Of a DNA stretch of 40,473 nucleotides, positions 22,765 through 25,959 are shown in pieces. Position 1 is the stretch's first letter, and every line of letters starts with the position of its first letter. Source of the DNA: Escherichia phage BUCT788; sequence record PV540240.1, one strand, 5' to 3'. Below the pieces are notes generated by a model that was given only the letters and a program-made list of their open reading frames with translations, searched no databases and had not been told where the DNA came from. Both the position numbers and the translations under genes were made by a program.

Positions 22765-25700
22765 ATGTCCACGATTACACAATTCCCTTCAGGAAACACT
22801 CAGTACAGGATTGAGTTCGACTACCTAGCCAGAACGTTTGTTGTTGTTACGCTGGTGAATAGCTCTAACCCTACCCTGAACCGTGTACTGGAAGTTGGTC
22901 GAGATTACCGATTCCTTAATCCAACGATGATTGAGATGTTGGTTGACCAATCAGGTTTCGACATCGTTCGTATTCACCGTCAGACTGGAACTGACTTAGT
23001 GGTAGACTTCAGGAATGGCTCAGTGTTGACAGCTAGTGACCTGACCAATTCAGAGCTTCAGGCTATCCATATTGCAGAAGAAGGTCGAGACCAAACGGTT
23101 GACTTAGCGAAGGAATATGCCGATGCTGCTAGCAGCTCTGCTGGCAACGCTAAGGATAGCGAGGACGAAGCACGACGAATCGCTGAGAGTATCAGGGAAG
23201 CTGGTCTAATTGGCTATATTACCCGTCGCTCCTTCGAGAAAGGCTACAACGTTACAACATGGAGCGAGGTCCTGCTATGGGAAGAGGATGGTGATTATTA
23301 CCGCTGGGATGGTACGCTTCCAAAGAACGTTCCTGCTGGTTCAACTCCTGAAACTTCCGGTGGGATTGGATTAGGTGCGTGGGTTAGTGTTGGTGATGCT
23401 GCTTTAAGAAGTCAGATTTCAAACCCGGAAGGGGCAATACTCTACCCTGAATTACATAGAGCACGCTGGCTTGATGAAAAAGATGTCCGTGGTTGGGGTG
23501 CTAAAGGGGATGGTGTCACTGATGATACAGCAGCGTTAACGAGCGCATTAAACGACACACCGGTTGGACAAAGGCTTAATGGCAATGGGAAGACATATAA
23601 GGTCACATCCCTGCCTGACATTAGTCGCTTCATCAACACTCGTTTCGTTTATGAGCGCATTCCCGGACAACCTCTTTATTATGTCTCTGAAGAATTTGTT
23701 CAGGGTGAGCTGTTCAAGATAACGGACACCCCTTATTACAATGCGTGGCCTCAGGATAAAGCGTTCGTATATGAGAATGTGATATATGCACCTTACATGG
23801 GTAGCGATCGTCATGGTGTTAGCCGTCTTCACGTATCATGGGTTAAGTCTGGTGATGATGGTCAAACATGGTCTACTCCAGAGTGGTTAACTGATCTGCA
23901 TCCAGATTACCCTACAGTGAACTATCATTGTATGAGTATGGGTGTATGTCGCAACCGTCTGTTTGCCATGATTGAAACACGTACTTTAGCCAAGAACGCA
24001 TTAACCAATTGTGCATTGTGGGATCGCCCCATGTCTCGTAGCCTGCATCTCACTGGTGGTATTACGAAGGCAGCAAATCAGCGATATGCAACAATCCATG
24101 TACCTGATCACGGGCTGTTCGTGGGTGACTTTGTTAACTTCTCTAACTCTGCGGTAACAGGTGTATCAGGTGATATGAAGGTTGCAACGGTAATAGATAA
24201 GGACAACTTCACGGTTCTTACACCTAACCAGCAGGACTCAGATTTGAATAACGCTGGAAAGAACTGGCATATGGGTACTTCATTCCATAAATCGCCATGG
24301 CGTAAGACAGATCTTGGCTTAATTCCTCGTGTGACTGAAGTTCATAGCTTTTCTGCTATTGATAACAATGGCTTTGTTATGGGTTATCACCAAGGTGATG
24401 TAGCTCCACGCGAAGTTGGACTATTCTACTTCCCTAACGCTTTCGATAATCCGGCTAACTATGTTCGTCGTCAGATACCTTCAGAGTATGAGTCAGATGC
24501 CTCAGAACCCTGCATCAAGTATTACGATGGTGTATTGTACCTCATCACCCGTGGCACTAGGAGCGATAGACTAGGTAGCTCTTTGCATCGTAGTAGAGAC
24601 ATAGGTCAGACTTGGGAGTCACTGAGATTTCCACATAATGTTCATCATACTACATTGCCTTTTGCTAAAGTAGGGGATGACCTTATTATGTTTGGTTCAG
24701 AACGTGCAGAAAATGAATGGGAAGCAGGTGCACCAGATGATCGTTACAAGGCATCTTATCCTCGCACCTTCTATGCACGCTTGAATGTAAACAATTGGAA
24801 TGCAGATGGTATTGAATGGGTTAACATCACTGACCAGATTTATCAGGGCGGAATAGTTAACTCAGGTGTAGGTGTTGGTTCGGTAGTTGTGAAGGATAGT
24901 TACATCTACTACATGTTTGGTGGAGAGGACCATTTTAACCCATGGGCATATGGAGATAACTCAGCGAAGGACCCATTCAAATCAGATGGTCATCCCTCAG
25001 ATTTGTATTGCTACAAAATGAAGATTGGCCCAGACAATCGTGTTTCAAGGGATTTCAGGTATGGTGCTGTACCTAACAGAGCTGTTCCCGTGTTTTTTGA
25101 TACGAATGGGATTCGCACTGTTCCTGCGCCAATGGAATTTACAGGGGATTTGGGTTTAGGTCATGTGACCATTAGAGCCAGCACCAGTAGTAACATTCGC
25201 TCTGAAGTTTTAATGGAAGGTGAATATGGGTTTATCGGAAAATCTATACCGACTGATAACCCGGCAGGGCAGCGCATCATGTTTTGCGGGGGTGAAGGCA
25301 CCAGTGCAACGACTGGCGCACAGATTACGCTTTATGGTGCAAATAACACCGACTCAAGGCGAATAGTTTACAACGGAGATGAGCATCTATTTCAGAGTGC
25401 TGATGTTAAGCCTTATAACGATAACGTCACTGCGCTTGGTGGGCCTAGCAACCGTTTCACCACTGCATACCTCGGAAGTAACCCTATTGTTACTTCTAAC
25501 GGGGAGAGGAAAACAGAGCCGGTAGTTTTTGATGATGCTTTCCTTGATGCCTGGAGTGACGTTCACTACATCATGTACCAGTGGTTAGATGCTGTTCAAC
25601 TGAAAGGCAATGATGCTCGTATTCACTTCGGGGTTATTGCTCAGCAAATTCGTGATGTATTCATTGCACATGGGCTGATGGACGAAAACAGTACGAATTG

Positions 25701-25959
25701 TCGTTATGCTGTTCTGTGCTATGACAAGTATCCACGGATGACCGATACGGTATTTTCGCACAATGAAATCATTGAACACACTGACGAGGAGGGTAATGTC
25801 ACCACTACGGAAGAACCTGTATACACCGAGGTGGTTATTCACGAAGAGGGTGAGGAGTGGGGTGTTCGGCCTGACGGAATTTTCTTTGCTGAAGCCGCTT
25901 ATCAGAGAAGAAAACTGGAAAGAATCGAAGCCAGACTTTCTGCTCTTGAACAGAAGTAA
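22765..25959 (+). CDS. Tail fibre/tailspike: T7 gp17-like N-terminal adaptor fused to a sialidase-like domain (likely endosialidase) with a C-terminal chaperone-like domain, 1064 aa
   Basis: N-terminal ~150 aa match recalled T7 gp17 (FDYLARTFVVVTL, DYRF, LVVDFRNGSVLTASDL, AEEGRDQ). Two Asp-boxes: SGDDGQTW (about 23848..23871) and SRDIGQTW (about 24590..24616). C-terminal 153 aa follow a Ser at residue 911 (codon 25495..25497). AGGAGG RBS. Confidence 0.93.
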   Translation: MSTITQFPSGNTQYRIEFDYLARTFVVVTLVNSSNPTLNRVLEVGRDYRFLNPTMIEMLVDQSGFDIVRIHRQTGTDLVVDFRNGSVLTASDLTNSELQAIHIAEEGRDQTVDLAKEYADAASSSAGNAKDSEDEARRIAESIREAGLIGYITRRSFEKGYNVTTWSEVLLWEEDGDYYRWDGTLPKNVPAGSTPETSGGIGLGAWVSVGDAALRSQISNPEGAILYPELHRARWLDEKDVRGWGAKGDGVTDDTAALTSALNDTPVGQRLNGNGKTYKVTSLPDISRFINTRFVYERIPGQPLYYVSEEFVQGELFKITDTPYYNAWPQDKAFVYENVIYAPYMGSDRHGVSRLHVSWVKSGDDGQTWSTPEWLTDLHPDYPTVNYHCMSMGVCRNRLFAMIETRTLAKNALTNCALWDRPMSRSLHLTGGITKAANQRYATIHVPDHGLFVGDFVNFSNSAVTGVSGDMKVATVIDKDNFTVLTPNQQDSDLNNAGKNWHMGTSFHKSPWRKTDLGLIPRVTEVHSFSAIDNNGFVMGYHQGDVAPREVGLFYFPNAFDNPANYVRRQIPSEYESDASEPCIKYYDGVLYLITRGTRSDRLGSSLHRSRDIGQTWESLRFPHNVHHTTLPFAKVGDDLIMFGSERAENEWEAGAPDDRYKASYPRTFYARLNVNNWNADGIEWVNITDQIYQGGIVNSGVGVGSVVVKDSYIYYMFGGEDHFNPWAYGDNSAKDPFKSDGHPSDLYCYKMKIGPDNRVSRDFRYGAVPNRAVPVFFDTNGIRTVPAPMEFTGDLGLGHVTIRASTSSNIRSEVLMEGEYGFIGKSIPTDNPAGQRIMFCGGEGTSATTGAQITLYGANNTDSRRIVYNGDEHLFQSADVKPYNDNVTALGGPSNRFTTAYLGSNPIVTSNGERKTEPVVFDDAFLDAWSDVHYIMYQWLDAVQLKGNDARIHFGVIAQQIRDVFIAHGLMDENSTNCRYAVLCYDKYPRMTDTVFSHNEIIEHTDEEGNVTTTEEPVYTEVVIHEEGEEWGVRPDGIFFAEAAYQRRKLERIEARLSALEQK

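Follow-up and report, generated by a model that had tools for sequence, protein, structure and literature searches.

The window analyzed here, the whole 40,473-nt stretch of Escherichia phage BUCT788 DNA (PV540240.1), carries on its + strand an open reading frame with an ATG start (22765..25959) that encodes a 1064-aa protein of 119 kDa, annotated as gene 17, the endosialidase tailspike precursor. The gene is 96.5% identical in nucleotide sequence to gene 17 of phage K1F over 100% of its length, and the protein shares 97.3% aa identity with K1F gp17 (endoNF), with 29 differences in 1064 aa and no indels. We are highly confident that the ORF represents gene 17 from a Kayfunavirus of the K1F-like group and an orthologue of the endosialidase endoNF, and the sequence holds no argument against this assignment. 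The exact protein was not found by an exact look-up in a collection of 15 billion sequences; the endosialidase tailspike of the K1F type is already known, and the present gene is an ordinary, slightly diverged copy.

Outside this gene, the window aligns collinearly with the genomes of K1F-like Kayfunavirus phages, at 94-96% identity. Positions 1-25000 are 94.1% identical to K1F at the nucleotide level over 98% of their length, and the best record for this segment is phiYIO1-1 (95.8% over 97%); the remaining 15 kb is 92-95% identical to K1F-like phages, and collinearity with K1F extends through the right arm. The neighboring genes are T7-like and in the K1F order: gp16 precedes the gene, and holin 17.5, gp18, Rz, and terminase lie downstream of it. 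By these alignments, the window belongs to the genus Kayfunavirus (K1F-like Studiervirinae), which agrees with an earlier sequence-only reading of this DNA, in which the phage was taken for a K1F relative.

A phage-RNA-polymerase promoter core, ACTATCACTATAGGAAAC, is located on the + strand at 22700..22717, 48 nt 5' of the start codon. Ten + strand copies of this motif with at most 3 mismatches occur in the window, versus 0.01 by chance, and the K1F record M63657 has a promoter annotated at the equivalent site 5' of the endosialidase gene. The ribosome-binding site ACAGGAGG (22753..22759, + strand) was read from the sequence 5-6 nt 5' of the ATG, and M63657 likewise has a ribosome-binding site annotated immediately 5' of the coding sequence. 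Scans for sigma-70 promoters and intrinsic terminators near the gene gave counts no higher than those in shuffled sequence. The predicted folds of the 5' leader (z = -1.55) and the 3' intergenic region (z = -0.44) are not significantly more stable than those of shuffled sequences; therefore, no terminator or RNA element is claimed here.

The protein begins with an N-terminal tail adaptor of the T7 gp17 type and, behind it, a linker rich in Ala, Ser, and Glu (together aa 1-150, 22765..23214, + strand), a region delimited with Pfam, PDB, and tblastn, in which homology is confined to aa ~6-120. The Pfam domain Phage_T7_tail (PF03906) covers aa 10-120 with 58.1 bits (cut-off, 25.2), the T7 gp17 structures (PDB 7boz and 8dsp) match aa 6-115 at ~40% identity, and a tblastn comparison with T7 gave 40% identity across aa 6-113. 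On the basis of these matches, the N-terminus is placed among the T7 gp17-type adaptors. The match had been recognized in the sequence-only reading, but it ends near aa 115-130 and not at aa 150, as was supposed there. Past aa ~120, T7 gp17 is unrelated to the window protein and comprises a coiled-coil shaft with a receptor-binding tip, without an enzyme or a self-cleaving chaperone. The predicted attachment site of the adaptor is the gp11/gp12 tail, and the annotations of relatives place tail tubular proteins over the corresponding part of the window.

The adaptor is followed by a Tail_spike_N module (aa 151-245, 23215..23499, + strand; Pfam and PDB), which is common to the tailspikes of CBA120-like and other phages. 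The Pfam domain itself (PF18668) spans aa 156-211 with 68.8 bits, and PDB entries 4oj5, 5w6h, 5w6f, and 9occ match aa ~150-225, a module common to many unrelated tailspikes. In this region, the identity to Kuttervirus and siphovirus tailspikes is 50-59%. The protein had been described as diverging completely after the adaptor; this second module, at aa ~150-225, was overlooked.

The catalytic part starts with the endosialidase N-terminal extension (End_N_terminal, PF12218; aa 246-312, 23500..23700, + strand; 128 bits), at which the crystal chains 1V0E and 3GVL begin, and continues as a six-bladed β-propeller catalytic domain (aa 313-754, 23701..25026, + strand; Pfam and residue check) with an inserted β-barrel at aa 424-506. 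The scores are 728 bits for End_beta_propel (PF12217) and 159 bits for End_beta_barrel (PF12195). All four endosialidase Pfam domains, together with Peptidase_S74, Phage_T7_tail, and Tail_spike_N, exceed their gathering cut-offs, the four endosialidase domains by a wide margin, and the endoNF crystal chains 1V0E/3GVL align with aa 245-910 at ~97% identity. The two Asp-boxes pointed out in the sequence-only reading lie in the propeller (SGDDGQTW, aa 362-369; SRDIGQTW, aa 610-617). His350, Arg549, Glu581, Arg596, and Arg647, the catalytic and substrate-binding residues of endoNF, which are named as catalytic in PMC13564897, are all identical in the window protein. In the window protein and nine relatives, the functional residues H350, R549, E581, R596, R647, Q330, K585, N699, R866, D994, S911, N912, K916, and G956 are unchanged. 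The roles of these conserved functional residues are described in PMC13564897 and PMC3742443. By its domains, residues, and Asp-boxes, the protein is classed as a bacteriophage endosialidase (endo-N-acetylneuraminidase, GH58), the identity that had been proposed for it.

We also considered that the protein is a different depolymerase, i.e., a pectate-lyase-type β-helix or an enzyme for another capsule type that resembles an endosialidase only through a generic Asp-box. The motif GWGAKGDGVTDDT, which is common to many β-helix depolymerases, and a weak Pfam match to Pect-lyase_RHGA_epim (aa 241-263, 18.8 bits) are consistent with such an enzyme; however, this match lies under the 27-bit cut-off, comprises 23 residues, and is confined to the module junction, whereas 97% identity to the crystallized endoNF catalytic domain extends across 665 aa and the propeller scores 728 bits as an endosialidase. 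The β-helix candidate was rejected on these grounds, and we consider it extremely improbable.

The propeller of the endosialidase is followed by a triple-β-helix stalk (End_tail_spike, PF12219; aa 755-910, 25027..25494, + strand; 265 bits). The crystal chains stop at Thr910, and the K1F mature peptide gp17* also ends at aa 910. Directly after the triple β-helix, at the extreme C-terminus, lies the intramolecular chaperone domain (Peptidase S74; aa 911-1064, 25495..25956, + strand; 154 aa, 17.9 kDa), for which Peptidase_S74 (PF13884) scores 36.6 bits (cut-off, 22). The structure of stalk and chaperone (PDB 3GW6) aligns with aa 790-1064 (E = 7e-185), and the chaperone domain differs from that of K1F by just 2 substitutions. 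The cleavage-site context is NPIVT/SNGERK, in which residue 911 is a serine followed by 153 residues. These values, like the 1064-aa length, had been matched to the K1F endosialidase in the sequence-only reading, and the match is accurate. Ser911 and Lys916 form the catalytic dyad, and Asn912 and Gly956 are essential for self-cleavage (PMC3742443); all four residues are kept in the window protein. In the K1F GenBank record AM084414, gp17* is annotated over aa 2-910 and gp17-CTD over aa 911-1064, which are the same coordinates. Self-cleavage is thus predicted between Thr910 and Ser911, with release of S911-K1064, and the expectation of a releasable chaperone domain is borne out by homology. The length expected for the C-terminal fragment is to be corrected: the catalytic serine departs with the released chaperone (PMC4690869), and the fragment has 154 aa (17.9 kDa) because the cleaved piece includes Ser911.

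The mechanism can be outlined from the K1F literature, which we apply to the window protein because of its near-identity. The 1064-aa precursor would trimerize, guided by the C-terminal chaperone, which would nucleate the triple-β-helix stalk. After folding, the Ser911/Lys916 dyad would cut the T910-S911 bond and free the 154-aa (17.9-kDa) domain. The mature trimer of ~101 kDa would be attached to the tail (gp11/gp12) via the T7 gp17-type N-terminus, with six spikes per virion. The propeller active site (Glu581, Arg596, and Arg647, with His350 and Arg549) would depolymerize the α-2,8-polysialic-acid K1 capsule, assisted by polysialic-acid binding sites in the β-barrel and the stalk, and capsule depolymerization would give the phage access to the outer membrane.

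The base composition of the gene differs from that of its surroundings. Its GC content is 45.7%, the lowest of the genome, versus 50.2% in the remainder of the window, with 44.9% in the catalytic part (aa 246-910), so that the AT-richness noted by eye in the sequence-only reading is real. The lowest-GC segments of 2.5-3.2 kb in the window fall within the gene, and 1-4% of segments of the same size are equally low. GC3 is 0.402, the lowest of 29 ORFs (mean, 0.547; sd, 0.055). The modules also occur separately. The siphovirus IME207, which lacks the T7 adaptor, has a counterpart of aa 141-1064 with 91% aa identity, and in PDB 9vvr (843 aa), aa 1-~240 are nearly identical and the C-terminal part is different. 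A mosaic gene is thereby supported, composed of a T7-group adaptor, a shared Tail_spike_N module, and an AT-richer endosialidase-chaperone cassette that is exchanged between unrelated phages. From composition and from the separate distribution of the modules, the earlier proposal of a chimeric, horizontally acquired gene gains support; neither a lack of endosialidase similarity nor a flat GC profile combined with a β-helix fold was found.

The closest known system is endoNF of Escherichia phage K1F (AM084414/DQ111067; PDB 1V0E, 3GVL, and 3GW6), which likewise has 1064 aa and an identical domain order, and whose gene also lies between genes 16 and 17.5 with a phage promoter upstream; it differs from the window protein by 29 substitutions, and the propeller segment is ~94% identical in DNA. 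The tail fibre/endosialidase of the siphovirus IME207 (Shuimuvirus; ANW46772.1, 976 aa) has the Tail_spike_N, endosialidase, and Peptidase_S74 modules in common with the window protein, whereas its own 55-aa N-terminus, which joins the siphovirus tail, takes the place of the T7 gp17-type adaptor. The endosialidase of the myovirus phi92 (PDB 4HIZ) shares this catalytic architecture, with an alignment over aa 246-908 (E = 1e-236), but it is far more diverged from the window protein. The related record YX22 matches the window gene only from nt 562 on, at 81% nucleotide identity. The 9VVR tail spike has nearly the same adaptor and Tail_spike_N module and diverges after aa ~250 into a different, shorter C-terminal part, which marks the module junction.

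Homology and the recorded hosts of close relatives strongly imply K1-encapsulated E. coli as the host. Among the hosts on record for the nearest relatives are E. coli O18ac:K1:H7, UTI89, DSM 30083, and "K1 LU_100." For a few relatives in the database, the listed host is not a K1 strain or not E. coli (MG1655, Acinetobacter, and Klebsiella); these entries probably reflect propagation or labeling issues. From its tailspike, the phage almost certainly targets K1-encapsulated E. coli, i.e., strains of the neonatal meningitis, UPEC, and APEC types. The gene has little discovery value: few phage depolymerases are as well characterized as endoNF, for which crystal structures have been solved, the chaperone mechanism has been worked out, and a complete mutational scan exists. 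Its practical value lies in annotation, as it marks the window as a K1F-like phage, and it provides one further natural allele of a protein that serves as a reagent for polysialic acid and in studies of phage therapy.

Comparison of 10 full-length alleles, out of at least 29, revealed 12 residues that are private to the window allele. Two private changes fall in the stalk (I839M and S848A), two in the β-barrel (T472K and T491D), and one beside the β-barrel (T728A); therefore, quantitative properties could differ from those of endoNF. We take Ser848 and Arg837 to be stalk residues of endoNF in contact with polysialic acid; a search of the full texts covered by the analysis found no published support for this contact. 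A functional variant rather than a neutral copy, with altered processivity or K1 strain range (O-acetylated K1 or a different O-antigen), would be in keeping with the location of 5 of the 12 private residues in the β-barrel, adjoining loops, or stalk, and with the propeller/barrel segment being the part most diverged from K1F (~94% nucleotide identity versus 98-99% elsewhere). In the deep mutational scan of K1F, the β-barrel loops (S460, G730, N732, and G742) were host-discrimination hotspots and the stalk was termed a "tuning knob" (PMC13564897). Every change in the window allele, however, is conservative or surface-located, and none affects a residue named in the papers examined; the main text of the K1F scan (PMC13564897) mentions none of the private positions. 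We regard a functional variant as unlikely, and the proposal that T472K, T491D, T728A, I839M, and S848A adjust processivity or distinguish K1 strains from one another (O-acetylated capsule or O-antigen background) as slightly less probable still. If it holds, the window allele would be a naturally occurring instance of the "tuning knob" proposed from the K1F scan.

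The gene 17 reading frame occupies window positions 22765..25959 on the + strand, opens with ATG, and runs for 1064 codons, exactly as the sequence-only reading had it. In a megablast search of 50,697 phage records, its top match was K1F gene 17, which covers the query in full (100%) at 96.5% identity and is annotated as endo-N-acetylneuraminidase or "precursor of gp17," and 28 more records span at least 80% of the gene. At the protein level, the window product and K1F gp17 are 97.3% identical, with 29 substitutions among 1064 residues and no indels. The catalytic chains of the K1F endosialidase endoNF (PDB accession numbers 1V0E and 3GVL) align with aa 245/246 to 910, and the stalk plus chaperone (3GW6) aligns with aa 790 to 1064 (E = 7e-185); the phi92 endosialidase (4HIZ) is alignable across aa 246 to 908. 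The observation of an endosialidase tailspike is confirmed, and the gene 17 product adds a new allele to a protein that is already known and has been studied intensively. The interpretation given with that observation is supported with three small corrections, namely, the adaptor length, a missed Tail_spike_N module, and a released fragment of 154 aa.

Seven Pfam domains exceed the curated cut-offs in the window protein: Phage_T7_tail (aa 10 to 120), Tail_spike_N (aa 156 to 211), End_N_terminal (aa 246 to 312), End_beta_propel (aa 313 to 754; 728 bits), End_beta_barrel inserted in the propeller (aa 424 to 506), End_tail_spike (aa 757 to 910), and Peptidase_S74 (aa 916 to 971). The two Asp-box motifs noticed earlier are located at aa 362 to 369 (SGDDGQTW) and aa 610 to 617 (SRDIGQTW). 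A deep mutational scan of K1F lists H350, R549, E581, R596, and R647 as key catalytic or substrate-binding residues and adds that Q330, K585, N699, R866, and D994 are also intolerant of change (PMC13564897). Self-cleavage of phage endosialidases is performed by a Ser-Lys dyad, and N912 and G956 are essential in the K1F enzyme (PMC3742443). All of these residues, including the dyad, are the same in the window protein and nine relatives.

Residue 911 is serine (...NPIVT|SNGERK...) and is followed by exactly 153 residues, both of which had been claimed. In AM084414, a K1F record submitted by the laboratory that characterized the enzyme, codons 2 to 910 are annotated as mature gp17* and codons 911 to 1064 as gp17-CTD, an "intramolecular triple-beta-helix chaperone domain." Because of these boundaries, and because the K1F chaperone takes the catalytic serine along on release (PMC4690869), the released fragment is taken to be S911-K1064. 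It is predicted to be 154 aa long (calculated mass, 17.9 kDa) and to leave a mature chain of 101 kDa; the earlier count (Ser911 plus 153 residues) and estimate of ~17 kDa are both right if Ser911 is counted in.

The homology to T7 gp17 is real (~40% identity) and extends over aa 6 to 113/120 only, rather than the ~150 aa proposed. An Ala/Ser/Glu-rich linker follows, and complete divergence does not set in there, as had been assumed, since the linker is followed by the Tail_spike_N module (aa ~150 to 225), which shares 50 to 59% identity with the N-terminal parts of tailspikes of CBA120-like myoviruses and several siphoviruses. The 843-aa "tail spike protein" of PDB 9VVR is near-identical to the window protein up to aa ~240 and different beyond, and in other Kayfunavirus and Salmonella phage records ~92% identity is limited to aa 1 to 211/224. 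A 976-aa protein of siphovirus IME207 shares 91% identity over aa 141 to 1064, along with the Tail_spike_N, endosialidase, and S74 Pfam domains, but lacks the T7 adaptor. The matches confined to the N terminus and the adaptor-free IME207 protein show that the modules are exchanged independently of one another.

The GC content of gene 17 is 45.7%, against 50.2% in the rest of the window, and that of the catalytic part (aa 246 to 910) is 44.9%, which bears out the AT richness judged by eye. The sequence-wide minima for 2.5-kb and 3.2-kb windows start at 23671 and 23821, within the gene, and only 1 to 4% of same-size windows are equally low. The contrast is sharper in GC3, which at 0.402 is the lowest among 29 + strand ORFs (mean, 0.547; SD, 0.055), in a near-tie with one HNH endonuclease gene. 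Module distribution and low GC together support the proposal that gene 17 is chimeric and horizontally acquired.

The window allele is least like K1F in the propeller/barrel segment (94.0% nucleotide identity, versus 98 to 99% in other segments). Twelve residues are private to it among the ten alleles compared (K270R, T472K, T491D, A530S, T531A, P577S, G600S, N712S, T728A, I839M, S848A, and G931S), and the exact protein sequence had no match in a 15-billion-sequence collection. S848 of endoNF is presumably a contact for polysialic acid. Some private residues fall in the β-barrel, described in the K1F scan as a host-discrimination hotspot, or in the stalk, its "tuning knob"; none of the private positions is discussed in the main text of that paper (PMC13564897). 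These barrel and stalk residues are the sole route to anything new and are unlikely to matter.

By orthology with endoNF, the C-terminal domain would chaperone trimerization and folding of the triple-β-helix stalk, after which the S911/K916 dyad would cut T910-S911 and free this domain. The gp17-type N terminus would dock the mature trimer on the tail, and the propeller would degrade α-2,8-polysialic acid, which would let the virion cross the K1 capsule. The recorded hosts of the closest relatives (O18ac:K1:H7, UTI89, DSM 30083, and "K1 LU_100") fit this mechanism, and we infer that BUCT788 is specific for K1 hosts. Near-identical endosialidase genes also occur in PV615262.1 ("Acinetobacter phage vB_Aba_01KA") and in MZ311862.1, whose listed host is E. 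coli K-12 MG1655; a K1 capsule is not expected in either of these hosts. IME207 (KX523699.2), a Salmonella/Klebsiella phage (Shuimuvirus) with Klebsiella pneumoniae as its recorded host, carries a K1F-type endosialidase cassette at 1242-4172 (93% nucleotide and 91% amino acid identity); its host and organism name look at odds with a polysialic-acid depolymerase.

Judged from its sequence, the window holds a Kayfunavirus genome in circularly permuted form. The proposed kinship with K1F holds throughout: positions 1-25000 are 94.1% identical to K1F over 98% (best record, phiYIO1-1; 95.8% over 97%), and the other 15 kb matches K1F-like phages at 92 to 95%. Since the K1F right end (39699) corresponds to window position 30436, the terminal repeat and the physical genome termini are expected around 30436/30437. 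A low-GC stretch (29500-31000) coincides with this mapped end.

Upstream, gene 16 ends at 22699 and is followed by the phage-RNA-polymerase promoter core ACTATCACTATAGGAAAC (22700-22717, +) and, before the gene 17 ATG, the ribosome-binding site GGAGG. The core ACTATCACTATAGG occurs ten times, on the + strand only (7207, 10028, 11016, 15423, 22700, 29659, 32955, 36034, 37762, and 38703), where chance alone would give 0.01 copies. Beside gene 17, neither a terminator nor an RNA structure reached significance, and the T7-type holin, gp18, Rz, and large terminase genes lie 3' of it. In the interval from gp18 to the large terminase, two HNH_3-family endonuclease ORFs, both on the + strand, flank gene 18.5 (Rz). 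The first (26610..27011; 133 aa), which is low in GC (42.5%; GC3, 0.40), lies in a stretch of ~406 bp (26601-27006) and the second (27435..27821; 128 aa) in one of ~408 bp (27433-27840); both stretches are absent from K1F and are probably homing-endonuclease insertions.

In the oldest K1F record, M63657.1, a 920-aa CDS is annotated at 110-2872, and a "terminator" is placed inside the region that more recent records assign to the 1064-aa gene. The shorter CDS is probably an early sequencing frameshift, and tools relying on this record would obtain the wrong protein size.
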